IMG/VR virus record: IMGVR_UViG_2648501841_000011 | Coordinates: 1 to 7,121 of that record | From: a virus | Taxonomy: Duplodnaviria > Heunggongvirae > Uroviricota > Caudoviricetes | DNA: 7,121 bases | Reading direction: 5' to 3' (one strand) | Part shown: positions 1 to 7,121 of the stretch, piece by piece | How positions within the stretch are numbered: the first letter of the stretch is position 1 | Layout of the letters: each line of letters starts with the position of its first letter | Notes under the pieces: model-generated | Seen by the model: only the letters and a program-made list of their open reading frames with translations | Databases searched by the model: none | Told to the model about the DNA's origin: nothing | Position numbers and translations under genes: made by a program

Positions 1-48
1 AAGCGGGTTAAGTGCGGGTGCGTTGAGGATGCCTGATTCATCAGAGGT

Positions 49-70
49 GGCGAGGGATTTCTCCCTCGCC
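49..70 (-). other. perfect 9-bp stem / 4-nt loop hairpin (GGCGAGGGA-tttc-TCCCTCGCC) just 3' of the hok stop; probable hok mRNA 3' structural element
   Basis: Inverted repeat read directly; a second small palindrome CTGA-ttca-TCAG sits at 33-44. No U-tract follows on the minus strand, so this is not a classical intrinsic terminator; hok mRNAs are known to carry structured 3' ends. Confidence 0.4.
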
Positions 71-77
71 GGGTCTC

Positions 78-233
78 TTACTCCTCAGGTTCGTAAGCTG
101 TGAAGACAGCGACCTCCGTCTGGCCGGTTCGGATTCGTACCTCGCAGAGGTCTTTCCTCGTTACCAGTGCCGTCACTATGACGGTTAAACAGATGACGAT
201 CAGGGCGATTAACATCGCCTTTTGCTGCTTCAT
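78..233 (-). CDS. hok: Hok/Gef-family type I toxin, 51-aa small membrane peptide (MKQQKAMLIALIVICLTVIVTALVTRKDLCEVRIRTGQTEVAVFTAYEPEE)
   Basis: ATG at 231-233 (minus) preceded by AAGGAGAAG SD; N-terminal hydrophobic helix followed by the conserved LVTRKDLCEV...GQTEVAVF core typical of Hok/Gef/RelF peptides; the flanking leader has hok-mRNA-like sequence blocks (GCUUGAGGCU-UCUGCCUC and UAGCCUCUUACGCGCC...AAGGAGAAG). From memory it is closest to HokD/RelF-type sequences, but no relBE genes lie upstream, so a specific paralogue is not assigned. Confidence 0.9.
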   Translation of the reverse strand: MKQQKAMLIALIVICLTVIVTALVTRKDLCEVRIRTGQTEVAVFTAYEPEE

Positions 234-290
234 AGCCTGCTTCTCCTTGCCTTTCGGCGCGTAAGAGGCTAACCTACATGTGTCTAGCAT
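78..290 (-). CDS. mok: mok-like reading frame: 70-codon in-frame N-terminal extension of hok (translational-coupling ORF)
   Basis: ORF track 78..290; ATG at 288-290 lies 57 nt upstream of and in frame with the hok ATG, the arrangement annotated for chromosomal mok/hok pairs. Whether it is translated is inferred, not shown. Confidence 0.45.
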   Translation of the reverse strand: MLDTCRLASYAPKGKEKQAMKQQKAMLIALIVICLTVIVTALVTRKDLCEVRIRTGQTEVAVFTAYEPEE

Positions 291-345
291 GAAATTGGCC
301 TCAGATTAATGTTAGGCGTCTTGCAGGACGCGTAATGTTAACTGG
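282..345 (+). ncRNA. sok: putative Sok-like antisense RNA overlapping the mok start and hok leader (boundaries approximate)
   Basis: Plus-strand promoter-like TTGCCT (247-252), 17-nt spacer, TAACCT (270-275) inside the mok frame, pointing antisense to the hok leader; small hairpin GCGTC-ttgcag-GACGC at 316-331. The position is that expected for Sok in hok/sok loci; ends not determinable from sequence. Confidence 0.3.
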
Positions 346-404
346 GGCTTTTCTCTATCTGCCGTTGGTGTTCATGCCCGAGGCAGATAGCCTCAAGCAC
401 CCGC

Positions 405-440
405 AGCTATTCTACTTAACTTCCCATTACCTCGCCAATA
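405..440 (-). promoter_or_regulatory. putative hok/mok promoter (minus strand): -35 TGGCGA (432-437), 17-nt spacer, -10 TAGAAT (409-414)
   Basis: Sigma70-like hexamers with 17-bp spacing, placed just upstream of the conserved hok-mRNA 5' block that begins near 400-403 on the minus strand. Confidence 0.3.
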
Positions 441-837: not shown

Positions 838-1611
838 ATGACTAAACATATGGACATTCATTGTCAAACACGCATATTTAACTCAATTAACCATGACACC
901 AAATATAAAATATGTATTTTTACTCCAAAAAACATTAAAAAAAATAATGCAACTCTTTATATACTTGATGGGAATAGTGCCAACAATTACATTTCTGATA
1001 TTCTGCCTGTTATTGATGCACTACCCAATCCACCAGTGTTAGTTACACTTGGTTATGAATCTTGGAATAACCTTAGCATTCATCGCCGTGCTTACGATTA
1101 TACTCCTGATGGTGAAAATGCTATTGTTGATAACTCTAAACCAGCATGGATCTACTTTACTGGTGGAGGAAGCCAGTCTTTCCGAGAATTATTACTAACT
1201 CAGATCATGCCATGGGTTAGTACTATTGCTCCGAACAGTTCCAGAATCGGTATATGGGGGCACTCGCTAGGTGCTATTTTTGTGCTTGATTGCTTAAAAA
1301 ATAATTCATGCTTTAACTATTATTATATATCTGCACCATCACTTCTATGGCAGAATGAAAGAATCATCAAGATAATTAAAGATGATATATCAGAATCAAA
1401 GCACACTAAAAGTATATGCTTGCTTAACGGAAATCTTAGCCTTGATTACTCCGCATCTTTATATCCTGAAGCCATCAAAGCGGAATCTGTTTTGAGAAAT
1501 ATTTTGACAGAAAAATACAGTAATTTTTCTATTGTACAATTTCCAGAGCTCAATCATCAGGAGACTTTCTCTGCTGCACTCTGGAATAGCATTATTCATT
1601 TCAGCATATAA
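838..1611 (+). CDS. putative esterase, alpha/beta-hydrolase fold, PF00756-like (Fes / IroE / esterase-D type); AT-rich cargo gene
   Basis: 257-aa ORF with GGGGAGA SD 4 nt before the ATG; motifs LYILDGN, YDYTPDG, FTGGGSQSFRELLLTQIMPWV and the nucleophile elbow G-H-S-L-G-A match the siderophore-esterase / esterase-D family layout; no N-terminal signal peptide evident; markedly AT-rich relative to flanking phage DNA. Confidence 0.8.
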   Translation: MTKHMDIHCQTRIFNSINHDTKYKICIFTPKNIKKNNATLYILDGNSANNYISDILPVIDALPNPPVLVTLGYESWNNLSIHRRAYDYTPDGENAIVDNSKPAWIYFTGGGSQSFRELLLTQIMPWVSTIAPNSSRIGIWGHSLGAIFVLDCLKNNSCFNYYYISAPSLLWQNERIIKIIKDDISESKHTKSICLLNGNLSLDYSASLYPEAIKAESVLRNILTEKYSNFSIVQFPELNHQETFSAALWNSIIHFSI

Positions 1612-2391: not shown

Positions 2392-3257
2392 TCACTTTTC
2401 CGATACAACACGGCGGGAAGAATCAGTAATCTGTCGAACAATATCCCGGTGCTTGTTCAGCTCCCGCAGCGCGGCGCAGACTCGCTCCCACTTCTGAACA
2501 TCACTTTTCGCCCTGCGCAGCGCCAGGTTTGCCCTGCGAAGGGACGGAAAAATCAGCTCATCTGCTTGCGTTTCGGTAAACGATGGCAACGGCTGCACAA
2601 TGTCCGCCACAGTTTCTGTTTTAATTTCTTCCTGTGTTGCGGCTTCCCGGACTGGTAACGCAGCACCTGCTGGCTGAGGAAAGGCCTTACCATCATTTTT
2701 CGTTACCGGCGCGGCTTTCGGATCTGCTGGTAAATTACCCCCCGACATGCAGTAACGAAATTTACCGTTCTGATTAACGCGNNNNNNNNNNCTTTCCGTT
2801 ACCAGCGCGGCTTTCGGCTCTGCTGGTAAATTATCGCCCGGCATGCAGTAACGAAATTTACCGTTCTGATTAACGCGTGCCAGCCGCCCCGTTGCGGTTA
2901 CCACCGCCAGCGTGGAAGCAACCTTGCGAGTACTGACGCCGAACTTACCCGCCAGTTCCTCACACGTTTTAGCACCATCCTGACCGATAAACTCAACCAT
3001 CATGTCTGCGGTAACTTTTGGAGCGACCTCTTCGGTTACCACATCCGGCGCTTCAGGTTGTAGTGCCTGCCCTTCGGTTACCCCGGCTTCACCTTCGACA
3101 GCCAGAAACCAGGTGTGACCCGTTTTATCAACAACGCCATTTTTTTGAGTTCCCACAGTTCGTTAAGAACTTCTTCACGGCTGATATCAAGCCGCGCCGC
3201 CAGTTCAACAGAATTGGCTTTTCCCATCGCTTTCAGTGCATGCAATACAGTTTCCAT
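2392..3257 (-). CDS. phage protein with winged-helix-like N-terminus and an internal 32-aa tandem repeat; reading frame broken by a 1-nt frameshift at an A7 tract (plus-strand T7 at 3140-3146) and containing a 10-N gap (2782-2791)
   Basis: ATG at 3255-3257 (minus) with GAGGT SD encodes [39 protein letters not shown], then reaches the A7 run; that frame stops at 3078-3080 (59 codons), while the other frame (ORF track 2392..3156) continues [18 protein letters not shown]... for 249 codons. One extra A, or a -1 slip, would give about 288 aa. Position directly downstream of the dnaC-like gene. Confidence 0.6.
2686..2877. repeat. 96-bp tandem direct duplication (2 copies) inside the coding sequence; the first 10 nt of copy 2 are masked as N
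   Basis: 2697-2781 and 2793-2877 align at a 96-nt offset with a few mismatches, encoding twice the peptide [12 protein letters not shown](P/S)G(D/G)NLPA(E/D)PKAA(L/P)VT; N run at 2782-2791. Confidence 0.85.
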
Positions 3258-3282
3258 CGAAAATTTACCTCGTCAAAAATTC

Positions 3283-4023
3283 TCACATACCCTGACGTCC
3301 AACGTTTGACCGCCAGCTCTCCCAGTTAAAATTCACCCAACGACCACCATTCATGGTCATACGGTCCATCACCCGATCTCCGAGGAGTGTGCTCATCGCT
3401 GCGTGATTCAGGTTCGTCAGCATTCCGACACTACACATCGAAGCCGTTCTGCGGTCGACTATCTGGTTCAGCGTGACCTGCTCGTTGCGCGTATCCCGCT
3501 GCATGCCAATTTCATCAAGGACCAGAAGGTCAACTCCACAAAGCTCCTGTAAAAATTTTTCCCCGGACTGGCCGTTGTCGTAGCCGTCATGCAACACGCT
3601 CATGACATCGGACACGGTGACGATAATCACGCTTCTCCCCTTCGCCATCAGCCGATTGCCAATCGCTGCTGCCAGGTGATTTTTACCGGTACCAGGTTTA
3701 CCGCTGAACACGAAGTTTGTACATCCGGTCATCAATTCATCGGCAATGGATTTCGCCTGGCTCAGAGCATGGCGCTGACCGTCGTTCTGCACCCGGTAGT
3801 TCCCGAATGAGCACTTCCTGTGAAGCGGCTGGATGCCCGCACGGTTCAGGATTTTTTCAACCCGCACCTGATGATTCAGGCGGTTAATCTCCTCGCTGCG
3901 TTTTCGTCGTTCAGCAAGTTGCCATTCCCGCCACTCCTCCACCGTCCGGTACGGTGGAACCGCCCCCTGTGGTGCAAGTCTGCGAATACGTTCAAGAACC
4001 CCAACTGCCGCAATGTTTTTCAT
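3283..4023 (-). CDS. DnaC-like replicative helicase loader (IstB-like AAA+ ATPase)
   Basis: 246-aa ORF; Walker A GKPGTGKNHLAAAIG and Walker B LLVLDEIG; GGGGG SD upstream of the ATG; immediately follows the replication initiator gene, as in the ydaU-ydaV-type arrangement of Rac-like prophages. Confidence 0.9.
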   Translation of the reverse strand: MKNIAAVGVLERIRRLAPQGAVPPYRTVEEWREWQLAERRKRSEEINRLNHQVRVEKILNRAGIQPLHRKCSFGNYRVQNDGQRHALSQAKSIADELMTGCTNFVFSGKPGTGKNHLAAAIGNRLMAKGRSVIIVTVSDVMSVLHDGYDNGQSGEKFLQELCGVDLLVLDEIGMQRDTRNEQVTLNQIVDRRTASMCSVGMLTNLNHAAMSTLLGDRVMDRMTMNGGRWVNFNWESWRSNVGRQGM

Positions 4024-4029
4024 GACACG

Positions 4030-4992
4030 TCACCCCCTGAATCCCGGCGGTATTTCAGTGTCCGGTTCAGAAATGTGATTCACGCAACGCTGCGCGGGCG
4101 AACGCCCCAGGCGGATAACCAGTTCATCCCATTTTTCCCGGAGTTTTGCCGGACTCATGATGTTTTTTACCCAGAACGAATCCCGCTGGAGACGCCCAAA
4201 CATTTCACAAATTTGTCTGTGAGTTCTGCCATCCAGCATCCGCATTGTCCGCACGTCATTGGCCCATGCAGTCCAGTTGGGTTCTTTCGGTCTCGTGATC
4301 TCGCCATCATCGCTGGCCGCCTGCTCGTAAAGACTCACGATTCGTCCCCAGATCCACTGTGCGCACACCAAATCTTCCTGACTTCCCCACTGGCGTTTTT
4401 TCGCACTGAACACAACCGCGTCAGGGTGTCGGGTTAAAAAATTCTGTTCAGCCGTCTGCGGGTCCGGTTGCGAAGCGTCCGGACAAGAAGATCTTTTATC
4501 TGACGGATCAGGTTTTAATACTGACGGATCGGGGTCAATCATCGCCCCCCTAATCGGCAGTTTGTTATCAACAGTTGATCCATCAAAATTTGACGGGTCA
4601 ACCGTTGAGGGGGCAATATTTGACGGGTCAACTGTTAACGGGTCATTTTTTGCCGGGCTAATTTTTCTTTTCGGTTTATATGACTCACGCGCCGCCGCAG
4701 CAGCTGCTTCGAGTTTTTCCACATTAAGCCGATAGATATTGCTTACATTACGCCCACCGACCTTACGCTCTTCCTTCGTCAGCCAGCCCTCTTTCGCCAG
4801 TTCTGCAATAGCCGATTTCACTGTGGATTCACTTCTTGCACCGATCTGACGCCGGATAGTTTCAATGGCAGGCCATGACACGCCCTCGTCATTGCTGTAG
4901 TCTGCAAGACGGGCCATAACCGCCACCCTGGATAAGATCATGCCGGTGAAGGCGCACCCTTCCCAGACAAGACCATGAAGCTTGCTGCTCAT
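4030..4992 (-). CDS. phage replication initiation protein (lambda O-like role): N-terminal winged-helix DNA-binding domain, low-complexity linker, C-terminal domain
   Basis: ATG at 4990-4992 (minus) with GGGGG SD; the ORF track's GTG at 5007 is rejected. N-terminus ...LSRVAVMARLADYSNDEGVSWPAIETIRRQIGARSESTVKSAIAELAKEGWL is typical of HTH-type replication initiators; gene order cro-like / cII-like / initiator / DnaC-like. Confidence 0.85.
   Translation of the reverse strand: MSSKLHGLVWEGCAFTGMILSRVAVMARLADYSNDEGVSWPAIETIRRQIGARSESTVKSAIAELAKEGWLTKEERKVGGRNVSNIYRLNVEKLEAAAAAARESYKPKRKISPAKNDPLTVDPSNIAPSTVDPSNFDGSTVDNKLPIRGAMIDPDPSVLKPDPSDKRSSCPDASQPDPQTAEQNFLTRHPDAVVFSAKKRQWGSQEDLVCAQWIWGRIVSLYEQAASDDGEITRPKEPNWTAWANDVRTMRMLDGRTHRQICEMFGRLQRDSFWVKNIMSPAKLREKWDELVIRLGRSPAQRCVNHISEPDTEIPPGFRG
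4495..4690. repeat. putative origin of replication: iteron-like repeats inside the initiator gene (TGACGG(A/G)TC x4; palindromic TCAACnGTTGA-type sites x3 at exact 30-bp spacing) next to an AT-rich stretch
   Basis: TGACGGATC at 4501 and 4522, TGACGGGTC at 4591 and 4621; TCAACAGTTGA 4568-4578, TCAACCGTTGA 4598-4608, TCAACTGTTAA 4628-4638; T-rich run 4644-4680. They encode the repetitive linker (VDPSN...STVDPSN...) of the initiator, like lambda ori lying within gene O. Confidence 0.45.
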
Positions 4993-5014
4993 AAAACCCC
5001 CGAACACCGTGCTT

Positions 5015-5440
5015 TTAGTGCATCACCACAGCATTCCCTGCCGGGCCGCCGCGATTCATCTGGTCATACAAAACAACCGCTGACGCAACAAAATCATCGA
5101 CATCCTTCACCAGCCGATCCCTCCGTTCGACGATCTCACGGTAATATTCAGAACTGTGGCTGCGCATACGGGCCACCAGCAAAGGCGGCATCGCCTTTTC
5201 GATCGCCGGTAACAGAGCCTGCATTTTTTCAACAGCATCAGGGGTGTCTTTATCCAGCCAACGGAAAATTTTCTGGGTATTACGGGCCAGGGCTTCCGGA
5301 TGGCTGTCGTCATACAGTTCCGGGAACGTCATTCCCAGCTCGAAATACGCTTTGGTAATTTTCGCAGCCGGTACTTTTTCGCCGTCCGGATGCGCCCAGA
5401 CATTCATCGCCATGCGGATGTGTTCATGCTTGATTTTCAT
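5015..5440 (-). CDS. ydaT: YdaT-like protein (reported from memory as a CII-like regulator partner of YdaS in Rac / CP-933P-type prophages)
   Basis: 141-aa ORF beginning MKIKHEHI...; its ATG overlaps the stop of the upstream cro-like gene (ATGA overlap at 5437-5440); position second in the early-right operon. Family assignment by recollection of YdaT sequences, not by search. Confidence 0.7.
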   Translation of the reverse strand: MKIKHEHIRMAMNVWAHPDGEKVPAAKITKAYFELGMTFPELYDDSHPEALARNTQKIFRWLDKDTPDAVEKMQALLPAIEKAMPPLLVARMRSHSSEYYREIVERRDRLVKDVDDFVASAVVLYDQMNRGGPAGNAVVMH

Positions 5441-5739
5441 GAATCAACTCCATCAGATAAGCATGCACTACAATCACCTTCAGCATGAACTACATGTGTT
5501 TGCCCCAAACGAATGCCGCTCGCATACTCAGGCCAAATAAGCTCCCAATCATGGGGTCGTAGCTCCGCCCTACTTACTTGGCCTTCCGTCGCAGATTCGA
5601 TCATAAGGGCGCGGGTTGGAGATATAGCTGTTCGTCCAGACGCCATTTGCGATAAGTAAGATGGCGATACACCAAGTCTGGCCGCGAATTTCTTAGCATC
5701 ACCAACCCTTAATGATTTAATAAACTCTTTTAATGTCAT
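5437..5739 (-). CDS. ydaS: Cro-like HTH regulator of the YdaS family
   Basis: 100-aa ORF with GAGGAAGG SD; HTH segment FAARLGVSPSYLSQMASGRTAISPTRALMIESATEGQVSRAELRPHDW matches the YdaS-type signature (LGVS...G.R.I...RA..IE.AT.G.V.R.ELRP.DW); divergent from the repressor gene. Confidence 0.85.
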   Translation of the reverse strand: MTLKEFIKSLRVGDAKKFAARLGVSPSYLSQMASGRTAISPTRALMIESATEGQVSRAELRPHDWELIWPEYASGIRLGQTHVVHAEGDCSACLSDGVDS

Positions 5740-5836
5740 ACCTTCCTCGGTTTAGTGTTTTTTTGCGAGTTTAGTGTTTAATAAACCATTAAGTCAAGTA
5801 TTTGCTTGTTTAGTGATTACTAAAGATAATTACCAC
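5740..5836. promoter_or_regulatory. divergent promoter/operator region between cro-like and cI-like genes with three GTTTAGTG(T/A)TT repeats
   Basis: GTTTAGTGTTT at 5750-5760 and 5769-5779, GTTTAGTGATT at 5808-5818 (the last within the palindrome TTTAGT-gatt-ACTAAA, 5809-5824); plus-strand TTGCTT (5802-5807), 17-nt spacer, GATAAT (5825-5830) ends 6 nt before the paaR2 ATG. Confidence 0.6.
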
Positions 5837-6208
5837 ATGCAAAAAAAAGAAATTCGCCGTTTACGTCTCAAGGAGTGGTTTAAAGATAAAACTCTGCCAC
5901 CCAAAGAGAAGAGCTACCTATCTCAACTAATGAGTGGGAGAGCCTCGTTTGGAGAAAAGGCTGCCAGAAGAATAGAGCAAACATACGGGATGCCGGAAGG
6001 GTATCTGGATGCGGAATACGCAGAACAACCGGGGGGTTCTCCACCACATGCAGGGTTAACGTCTAATCAACTGGAATTATTGCAGATTTTTTCAGCCTTC
6101 CCTGAGGATGAGCAACGCCAGATAATCAGCGAGTTAAAGCAGAAAAAAGAATCAATGGAAGATCTCATAGCGAGATGGATTGCGGCGCAAAAATGCCGCC
6201 GCGCCTGA
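5837..6208 (+). CDS. paaR2: PaaR2-like HTH transcriptional regulator in the CI-repressor position; first gene of the paaR2-paaA2-parE2 module
   Basis: 123 codons from ATG 5837; N-terminal CI/Cro-type HTH (EKSYLSQLMSGRASFGEKAARRIEQTYGMPEGYLD); the ORF track's GTG start at 5774 lies inside an operator repeat and is rejected; the -10 element abuts the ATG, suggesting a leaderless transcript. Confidence 0.8.
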   Translation: MQKKEIRRLRLKEWFKDKTLPPKEKSYLSQLMSGRASFGEKAARRIEQTYGMPEGYLDAEYAEQPGGSPPHAGLTSNQLELLQIFSAFPEDEQRQIISELKQKKESMEDLIARWIAAQKCRRA

Positions 6209-6228
6209 GTTATAAAACCGGAGGAAAC

Positions 6229-6420
6229 ATGAATAGAGCCCTTTCACCAATGGTTTCTGAATTTGAAACCATTGAACAAGAAAACAGTTACAACGAATGG
6301 CTGCGTGCGAAAGTAGCAACGAGCCTTGCAGATCCGCGCCCAGCAATTCCCCATGACGAAGTTGAGCGCAGAATGGCAGAACGCTTTGCTAAGATGCGCA
6401 AGGAACGGAGCAAGCAGTAA
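6229..6420 (+). CDS. paaA2: PaaA2 antitoxin (63 aa), partner of ParE2
   Basis: ATG at 6229 with GGAGG SD 5 nt upstream; peptide MNRALSPMVSEFETIEQENSYNEWLRAKV... recognised from memory as PaaA2; its stop (6418-6420) is 1 nt from the parE2 ATG. The ORF track's upstream ATG at 6175 lies inside paaR2 and is rejected. Confidence 0.8.
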   Translation: MNRALSPMVSEFETIEQENSYNEWLRAKVATSLADPRPAIPHDEVERRMAERFAKMRKERSKQ

Positions 6421-6421
6421 A

Positions 6422-6700
6422 ATGTTACCCGTGTTATGGCTTGAAAGCGCAGATACCGACCTAGATGATATAACTAGTTATATTGCTCGTTTCGACATAG
6501 ATGCGGCTGAACGCTTATGACAGCGATTAAGGGGTTGTGTGCTGCCGTTATCCGAACATCCGTATTTATACCCACCAAGCGACAGAGTACCTGGCTTGCG
6601 TGAGATTGTAGCCCACCCTAACTATATAATTCTATACCGCGTAACAACATCAAGCGTTGAAGTAGTAAACGTGATCCACGCAAGACGCCAGTTTCCCTAA
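6422..6700 (+). pseudogene. parE2: parE2 (ParE/RelE-superfamily toxin) interrupted by an in-frame TGA at codon 33 (6518-6520)
   Basis: ATG 6422; N-terminal 32 codons MLPVLWLESADTDLDDITSYIARFDIDAAERL, then TGA; the same frame continues without a stop as QRLRGCVLPLSEHPYLYPPSDRVPGLREIVAHPNYIILYRVTTSSVEVVNVIHARRQFP to TAA at 6698-6700. Both halves have ParE-like character; 279 nt in total would give a 92-aa toxin if the TGA were a sense codon (TGG is one transition away). Confidence 0.7.
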
Positions 6701-6718
6701 CTTTCACTACCAATAGAA

Positions 6719-6765
6719 ACATAACAACCGCAACGACTTTATCAAAAGCGTTGTGTTTGTTATGT
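6719..6765. other. long inverted repeat / hairpin downstream of parE2 (ACATAACAA ... TTGTTATGT arms with nested CAACG/CGTTG)
   Basis: Perfect 9-bp arms at 6719-6727 and 6757-6765 with an internal sub-palindrome; begins about 19 nt after the parE2 stop; no clear U-tract, so terminator function is uncertain. Confidence 0.4.
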
Positions 6766-6771
6766 CCCGCG

Positions 6772-6812
6772 GTTTAGTTTTTACTTGACTTAAGTTTAAT
6801 GTTTATTAAACT
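6772..6812 (+). promoter_or_regulatory. putative rightward (PL-like) promoter with a fourth operator-like motif: GTTTAGTTTTT (6772-6782), -35 TTGACT (6784-6789), -10-like TAAACT about 16-17 nt downstream
   Basis: One-mismatch copy of the intergenic operator motif immediately upstream of, and overlapping, a sigma70-like hexamer pair on the plus strand. Confidence 0.35.
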
Positions 6813-7121
6813 AAAAATACCAACCCACCCCGCCCCACAGAACGCAGGGAAATACTTCGAGTTACCCGGCAGTGGTCAGGGGTTAAGTAGCCAGCCCGAG
6901 GCGTATGAACATGACGGCAGGGTTCAACTTTAATAACTATGCAGCAGGTTTTTGTTCCGCTACCCCGGCGTTAAGGGGAAACAGAGGGTTTCTCAGTGGG
7001 CGAAGTCAAACATCAGAATGGAAGGCATCCCGGGATCGGCAAAGAAGCAGCAATGGCGCTTTATATTGACATCAGCGCCATTGCAGGACAGGTAAGAGTT
7101 ATCAGAGCGGTAACTAAGCGG

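Follow-up and report, generated by a model that had tools for sequence, protein, structure and literature searches.

A complete and seemingly undamaged hok/mok/sok type I toxin-antitoxin locus of ordinary kind at the edge of a prophage sequence

Introduction

The left edge of the DNA considered here encodes a short hydrophobic peptide of Hok type, which raises the question of whether this toxin gene is still accompanied by the regulatory RNA elements of a working hok/mok/sok locus or is merely what remains of one. A first-pass annotation of the window (the whole stretch of 7,121 nt that was analyzed) had favored a functional locus over a relic, and it had listed a number of individual elements in support. 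Judged from its sequence, the minus strand of window positions 1-440 is indeed a complete, seemingly undamaged hok/mok/sok type I toxin-antitoxin locus of the ordinary kind. On the minus strand, it comprises a hok promoter, a 5' tac element, the mok leader ORF, the 51-aa Hok toxin, a 3' hairpin, and fbi, while the plus strand contributes a 71-nt Sok antisense RNA having its own promoter and terminator (Table 1). That each of these elements is present, intact, and conserved, along with how they are predicted to pair, was determined directly for the window locus. The locus is a known kind of element and it belongs to an allele family that has already been annotated.

Table 1. Elements of the hok/mok/sok locus in the window, as read or predicted from its sequence
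Feature	Position	Strand	Details
hok/mok promoter	409-438	-	-35 TTGGCG (438-433), 18-nt spacer, -10 TAGAAT (414-409); sigma-70-type, promoter scan
tac	391-402	-	GGGUGCUUGAGG, 5' end of hok mRNA; same as hokW 5' end (primer YO-351, 0 mismatches)
hok mRNA 5' leader	228-402	-	+1 to just beyond hok AUG; Rfam RF01794
mok initiation region / Sok target	277-302	-	SD GAGG 302-299; AUG 290-288; loop CUAGACA 287-281
mok ORF	78-290	-	70 aa in hok frame, MLDTCRLASYAPKGKEKQA followed by Hok; from ORF list
hok (hokD allele)	78-233	-	51 aa plus stop; SD AGGAG inside AAGGAGAAG (248-240)
3'-UTR hairpin	49-70	-	GGCGAGGGA-GAAA-UCCCUCGCC, GC-rich; present in all folds
fbi	16-28	-	CCUCAACGCACCC, complementary to tac
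hok intrinsic terminator, 5' arm and part of loop	1-9	-	AACCCGC UU..., AACCCGCUU at 9-1; rest past window edge
Sok promoter	247-275	+	-35 TTGCCT (247-252), 17-nt spacer, -10 TAACCT (270-275)
Sok RNA	282-352	+	~71 nt; 15-nt free 5' tail, long hairpin 297-349, U-tract

The Hok toxin and the mok reading frame

Members of the Hok/Gef family are peptides of ~50 aa in which a transmembrane helix at the N-terminus precedes a conserved domain in the periplasm, and membership was further judged by a profile score above the gathering threshold. The 51-aa Hok reported previously belongs to this family, as the frame running from 233 to 78 on the minus strand scores 81.6 bits against the HOK_GEF profile (Pfam PF01848; cut-off 22, E=3e-23). 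NCBIfam profiles applied to the 70-aa frame returned solely sub-threshold matches to Hok-family and HokA models, and the Pfam result is the decisive one. All 51 residues are the same as those of K-12 HokD (RelF), 46 of 51 are the same as those of HokW from phage 933W, and hokD is the name assigned by PGAP in more than 20 genomes among the matches listed.

The mok-like extension that had been described as in frame with hok is likewise present. A GAGG Shine-Dalgarno sequence is followed 8 nt on by an ATG at position 290, which opens a frame of 70 codons that overlaps hok and ends with it; both the length and the layout of this ORF are those of the annotated MokW of phage 933W. Among 27 aligned relatives spanning Escherichia, Kluyvera, Citrobacter, Pantoea, Erwinia, and Photorhabdus, the mok ATG occupies the same aligned position in every sequence regardless of frame. 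The frame itself varies relative to hok (0 in 19 relatives, +1 in four, and +2 in four), is just 19 codons long in the +2 group, and is also changed in the Rac 442 and L014 alleles. According to published work, it is translation reaching the hok initiation region that matters and not the Mok product (PMC9841398). An invariant ATG combined with a variable mok frame fits this model, and we therefore regard the in-frame extension as genuine and as nothing unusual in this branch of the family.

The hok promoter and leader

The hok promoter was detected by a generic scan for sigma-70 promoters and terminators, whose promoter-like and terminator-like sites were about as frequent as expected by chance. 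The scan missed the Sok promoter and gave no terminator within the locus; these elements were located via homology and folding. Transcription of hok presumably begins near position 402, given the placement of the -10 hexamer and of position 1 of the Rfam model. The -10 hexamer and the sequence downstream of it are conserved in the 933W, Rac, mEp460, and O157 copies, and homology to some relatives stops within the promoter spacer.

The leader begins with GGGUGCUUGAGGCUAUCUGCCUC at 402 on the minus strand, and each of the sequence blocks that the first-pass annotation had recognized from hok mRNAs was recovered (GCUUGAGGCUAUCUGCCUC at 398-380, UAGCCUCUUACGCGCC at 271-256, and AAGGAGAAG at 248-240). 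A covariance-model search (cmscan) agrees with that recognition: RF01794 matches the minus strand from 402 to 228 over the full model (1-157) and scores 112.6 bits, the gathering score being 59 (E=9.6e-26). This family carries the name "sok antitoxin" and is built in the hok-sense orientation, extending from +1 to the hok AUG with the hok Shine-Dalgarno sequence included. The match consequently marks the strand of the hok leader, and it bears upon Sok only by way of exact complementarity. A permissive Rfam search added chance-level extras only (ceN48, viral CITE, and CsrC), and a plus-strand "sok" match at 344-474 (15.7 bits) was disregarded as being of the same chance level.

Pairing of the mRNA ends

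One element of the locus had been thought to lie partly outside of the available sequence, as the 3' fold-back appeared to run off the start of the window. This was not the case. The fbi element lies inside the window at 28-16, where it pairs with 402-391, and the edge cuts the terminator alone at base 1, so a fold-back truncated at the window edge was rejected. In the near-identical loci L002, L006, and L005, the sequence continues with CGGCGGGTTTTGTTTTTT beyond the position of the edge. As seen in 97%-identical loci, the entire terminator reads AACCCGC-UUCG-GCGGGUU followed by a U-run, with GCGGGUU and the U-run located outside of the window. For folding, the 3' end of the transcript was completed with 18 nt from L002, a 97%-identical O157 prophage copy that agrees with the window across the last 30 nt compared.

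The full transcript of 420 nt, of which the last ~18 nt are borrowed, folds with -171 kcal/mol (z=-7.1) and has its ends joined by tac and fbi. In both the MFE and centroid folds, tac (nt 1-12, 402-391) and fbi (28-16) form a 12-bp helix. The predicted energy of this duplex is -21.5 kcal/mol, a value that just 9 of 2000 shuffled 3' UTRs (dinucleotide shuffles) attained, and among non-trivial partners for the 5' end, fbi ranks first across the 7.1-kb window. Forty distinct relatives, drawn from one-genome-per-species contigs and including 38 intact loci, have a block complementary to tac whose distance from the 5' end is constant at ~340-380 nt. Within the 27-sequence alignment, one tac:fbi pair is U:A in 15 sequences, C:G in nine, and U:G in two, and the nine carriers of the compensatory U:A to C:G change are Photorhabdus and Pantoea relatives. 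Overall, 87% of the tac:fbi alignment cells are paired, compared with 31-58% after sliding the partner by 1-3 columns. The second half of the helix is not properly scorable on this alignment (A2), because a one-base bulge found in Escherichia-type but not in Photorhabdus-type sequences shifts the register; this half was assessed using per-sequence duplex prediction. The pairing, its constant spacing, and its covariation together indicate that fbi exists inside the window and is under selection as the partner of tac.

Of the 3' hairpins mentioned in the first-pass annotation, the one at 70-49 was found on the minus strand and is kept as a stem in the alignment of 27 relatives. By analogy to work on R1 (PMC9841398), it is likely the protective stem-loop of the processed mRNA. 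When the 3' end was truncated in silico, the 5' end was freed and refolded locally, and the hairpin containing the mok Shine-Dalgarno sequence and AUG was formed at three of the four cut points. This target hairpin is predicted in full-length and truncated folds alike, and its CUAGACA loop opens with the YUNR motif CUAG. In the MFE folds of truncated RNA, tac pairs with 350-344 instead of the AGCCUC box at 270-265, which is the ucb element of the R1 model, suggesting that the details of refolding may either differ in this locus or be mispredicted.

The Sok antisense RNA

The antisense promoter that had been placed in the Sok position corresponds to TTGCCT-17-TAACCT at 247-275 on the plus strand. 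It was missed by the generic scan because just 7 of its 12 hexamer positions match the sigma-70 consensus. In the alignment of 27 relatives, the -35 core is invariant, as are the window positions of the second and last -10 bases. The same TAACCT -10 sequence was replaced (primer YO-421) in the "promoter-less" sokW construct of Takada et al., which unmasked the toxicity of HokW (PMC8621323). The misc_RNA annotation of SokW in 933W maps by alignment to window positions 282-352 of the plus strand, and the segment 282-358 has an MFE of -33.1 kcal/mol (z=-6.1). The free 5' tail of this RNA is complementary to the mok AUG as well as to the CUAGACA loop. At the sequence level, Sok thus has the appearance of a cis-encoded antisense RNA, with a promoter of its own, a free tail, and a terminator hairpin.

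It could still be argued that the region consists of a short hydrophobic ORF accompanied by chance hairpins and lacks a genuine regulatory RNA architecture, as the Sok promoter is a weak match to consensus and the sites returned by the generic scan occur near chance frequency. The likelihood of this scenario is negligible, and we consider it refuted by the Rfam score (112.6 bits, E about 1e-26), the fold z-scores of -7.1 and -6.1, the shuffle test of tac:fbi (9/2000), the covariation found in relatives, and the 93-97% nucleotide identity to annotated mokW/hokW/sokW loci.

Prophage context

The surroundings of the locus identify the window as mosaic prophage DNA. In the right portion (2793-7121), identity to an O157 prophage is 99.8%, and the PGAP annotation of that prophage in the corresponding region lists a transcriptional regulator, YdaT, replication-type HTH and ATP-binding proteins, DUF1627, and DUF977, all encoded on the hok strand. 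The left 2.8 kb (1-2781) is 99.2% identical to prophages of the 14EC007 type. These two sets of matches make the window a lambdoid mosaic that arose by recombination, its two parts meeting near 2781-2793. Among the complete E. coli genomes of the collection, none has as much as 80% of the 7.1 kb in a single block. Past the position of the left window edge, the O157 and 14EC007 prophages encode hokD followed by DUF968, RusA, and the antiterminator Q. The cassette is flanked by replication genes on one side and, in near-identical prophages, by DUF968-RusA-Q on the other, which is the position of hokD in the Qin prophage of K-12. We have little hesitation in concluding that the locus is best explained as a hok/mok/sok type I cassette of the hokD type (hokW-like), intact and residing on a lambdoid prophage from E. 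coli or one of its close relatives.

Adjacent to the cassette is an insert of low GC content (29-39%), which extends from window position 432 to ~1996 and encodes a 257-aa alpha/beta-hydrolase (838-1611, plus strand) having a weak Pfam Esterase match (E=0.005). The first-pass annotation had described hok and this esterase as convergent. We rejected this arrangement, as hok is read leftward from ~402 and the esterase rightward from 838, making them divergent. Neither the O157 nor the mEp460 version of this prophage region has the insert, whose left junction falls in or just upstream of the hok promoter, with O157 homology stopping at 431 (between the -35 and -10 hexamers) and mEp460 homology at 478. 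The closest relatives that have the esterase insert (E. coli 14EC007 and similar strains) also contain an IS481-family element of ~1.1 kb (L001, 4248-5342). This element, which has the target duplication TCTCCT (window 242-247), lies inside the hok Shine-Dalgarno sequence and adjoins the Sok -35 hexamer. This insertion implies that the 14EC007-type cassette is broken whereas that of the window is intact, a situation that parallels the damaged hok loci of K-12.

Distribution and diversity

When examining the distribution of the locus, it is evident that the cassette is very common. Of 5426 complete E. coli genomes, 3928 have at least 80% of the 460-bp segment, the median being two places per genome and the maximum nine, and the E. 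coli copies are annotated as "type I toxin-antitoxin system toxin HokD". Phage records with the segment number 110, among them 933W, VT2-Sakai, Rac, and mEp460, and in these the annotation reads mokW/hokW/sokW or mok/hok. Loci with 96-100% identity to the E. coli type were additionally encountered under the names Acinetobacter idrijaensis (L021), Xanthomonas pisi (L026), and a MAG (L059), in each case on a very short contig (275, 431, and 2995 bp, respectively). Such short contigs in unrelated taxa look like contamination with enterobacterial DNA and not like horizontal transfer.

In a small sample of 11 distinct hokD-type loci, diversity per site reaches its peak (0.26-0.28) at 273-302, i.e. 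in the Sok 5' tail and mok-start hairpin. It is also high at 353-382 and 43-72, and it is 0-0.04 in the hok coding sequence. Seen at the sequence level, this pattern suggests allele-specific Sok recognition among co-resident prophage copies. A further observation concerns the sequence UACGAA around the Tyr47 codon of hok (window 90-95, minus strand), which is invariant in all 27 aligned relatives and contains UACG, the TadA motif for A-to-I editing. Recoding of Tyr to Cys at this C-terminal position, similar to that of hokB, has been reported in hokC, hokD, and hokE (bioRxiv 10.1101/2025.08.07.668861). The invariant motif together with the reported recoding suggests that the toxicity of the window hok allele may depend upon RNA editing.

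Proposed mechanism

Based upon the elements present in the window, a mode of action can be outlined in which processing of the mRNA, cleavage by RNase III, the coupling of translation, and toxicity presumably follow the published R1 hok/sok and Sp5 hokW-sokW systems. Firstly, a constitutive promoter (438-409) would produce a minus-strand hok mRNA of ~420 nt. In the full-length RNA, the pairing of tac (402-391) to fbi (28-16) would yield a closed form that is neither translated nor accessible to Sok. Slow trimming of the 3' end would then take off fbi, allowing the 5' region to refold such that the mok Shine-Dalgarno sequence and AUG (302-288) become exposed within a hairpin bearing a U-turn loop. 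Ribosomes translating mok from 290 onward would enter the hok initiation region and bring about the synthesis of the 51-aa membrane toxin Hok (233-78). Secondly, the promoter on the opposite strand (247-275), which is of weak consensus but conserved, would supply an unstable Sok RNA of ~71 nt (282-352). The free 5' tail of Sok would pair with the mok start and loop, thereby blocking translation of mok and hence of hok, and the resulting duplex would be marked for RNase III. Lastly, once the supply of Sok drops, be it through loss of the element, arrest of transcription, or prophage induction, the stable processed hok mRNA would be translated with ensuing damage to the membrane. As the first 50 nt of the transcript are those of hokW and both hexamers of the Sok promoter are held in common with it, the same mechanism very likely operates in the window locus.

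Functional locus or silent passenger

The first-pass annotation regarded the locus as functional and not as a relic, a reading with which our results are in accord. The promoters, tac, mok, the Sok target with its YUNR loop, hok, fbi, and the Sok hairpin-terminator are all undamaged, and the window copy is free of both lesions seen in relatives, namely the loss of the leader to relBE in K-12 and the IS481-family insertion in the hok Shine-Dalgarno sequence. The Rfam match to the leader and the activity of hokW-sokW (PMC8621323) point in the same direction. Judging by its sequence, the hok/sok allele of the window is presumably active.

Intactness need not equal activity, however, since several intact chromosomal hok loci gave no post-segregational killing (literature summarized in bioRxiv 10.1101/2025.08.07.668861). 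Accordingly, the locus might be intact in sequence yet physiologically silent, a passenger or relic comparable to the chromosomal hok of K-12 that is transcribed and repressed but never kills under natural conditions. The repeated inactivation of relatives (K-12 hokD without its leader and the 14EC007-type IS481-family element in the hok Shine-Dalgarno sequence) would be consistent with such a fate, as would the mok frame changes of the Rac 442 and L014 alleles, except that frame shifts in mok are neutral in the R1 model (PMC9841398). We nonetheless consider a silent passenger unlikely: the coding sequence and all regulatory RNA elements have been kept, coding diversity is a mere 0-0.04 per site across distinct prophages, tac:fbi has undergone compensatory change, and the sister hokW-sokW locus is both active and able to influence phage release (PMC8621323).

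Role of the cassette

Assuming that the locus is functional, its role can be approached through its closest studied relative. HokW arrests growth and is counteracted by sokW in a manner dependent upon RNase III and Hfq (Takada et al. 2021, PMC8621323). Exposure to mitomycin C lowers sokW and raises HokW, and deletion of the locus halves phage release (PMC8621323). By analogy to hokW-sokW, the window cassette most likely serves in prophage addiction and/or helps with host lysis upon induction.

An alternative role would be that of an abortive infection or anti-phage module, in which transcription in the host is stopped by an infecting lytic phage and the decay of Sok lets Hok kill the cell. With an antitoxin RNA that is unstable and a toxin mRNA that is stable, the mechanism is by its nature sensitive to a stop in transcription (PMC9841398). 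A survey found hok genes to be enriched approximately four-fold in prophages, and the literature that it cites includes a role for Hok in phage defense; the same survey found that hok is not enriched beside known defense systems (bioRxiv 10.1101/2025.08.07.668861). Moreover, the sole experiment with a close relative (hokW-sokW) affected the release of the prophage itself and not defense. It seems improbable to us that defense is the main function of the cassette.

Within the favored scenario of addiction and/or assistance with lysis, two additional ideas can be entertained. The concentration of diversity in the Sok 5' tail and mok-start hairpin, as opposed to the near-invariant coding sequence, raises the possibility that prophage copies hold separate Sok "specificities". 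Co-resident copies might in this way carry Sok RNAs that do not cross-react, each conferring independent addiction. Furthermore, the cassette is co-oriented with the minus-strand replication genes, and read-through across the Sok promoter upon induction might turn on Hok and make it an early helper of lysis. Taken jointly, these ideas are speculative and we would give them a rather low chance of being correct. If true, they would be extensions of known biology and not a new type of system.

The locus has little significance past its correct annotation, and it opens no new question. The proper label is a full hokD/mok/sok cassette with a Sok RNA at 282-352 of the plus strand, whereas gene callers provide the hokD CDS only. 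The presence of the cassette flags the window as prophage DNA, and its toxin may affect lysogen stability or the timing of lysis.

Comparison with known systems

The paradigm of the family is the hok/mok/sok (parB) locus of plasmid R1, which has the same elements and the same predicted logic as the window locus (PMC9841398). Common to both, as elements or as part of the predicted logic, are the tac/fbi pairing, mok-hok coupling, a Sok free tail directed against the mok start, a YUNR loop, and a protective 3' hairpin. The Hok proteins belong to the same Pfam family at an identity of ~44%, a value that was obtained for HokW versus R1 Hok (PMC8621323). Several distinctions are also apparent. The carrier is a plasmid in the case of R1 and a prophage in that of the window, and the partner of tac after truncation that is predicted in the MFE folds of the window RNA differs from that of the R1 model. 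In addition, mok shares the frame of hok in the window, whereas the R1 start positions (mok U117/G118 and hok G176; PMC9841398) imply by arithmetic that mok is in another frame.

Much closer is the hokW-mokW-sokW locus of 933W and Sakai Sp5 (AF125520; PMC8621323), which exhibits the same architecture element by element and of which hokW-sokW is already annotated in the 933W record. It is ~93% identical to window positions 6-421, the two leaders agree throughout their first 50 nt (primer YO-351, 0 mismatches), and the Sok -35 and -10 hexamers, the 70-aa in-frame Mok, and the 51-aa Hok are all as in the window. The C-terminus of Hok reads ...FTAYEPEE in the window versus ...FVDYESEK in HokW, and in the Sok 5' tail and target loop, 6 of the 30 positions of probe YO-592 are different in the window. 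Beyond fbi, 933W diverges from the terminator that is common to the other copies. The prophage site is distinct as well, with the window cassette lying beside replication genes and hokW of 933W near the right end of the genome.

The third comparison is to hokD (relF) of the K-12 Qin prophage, which encodes the very same 51-aa peptide. Its coding sequence and 3' UTR, including fbi, are 98.4% identical to window positions 1-247, and it occupies the same neighborhood, lying upstream of the DUF968 (ydfU)-Q module. In K-12, relE replaces the sequence upstream of the hokD Shine-Dalgarno sequence, and everything located there (tac, the mok start, the Sok promoter, and Sok) has been lost to relBE. The window locus represents the undisrupted form of this cassette, and it is useful as the intact counterpart of K-12 hokD.
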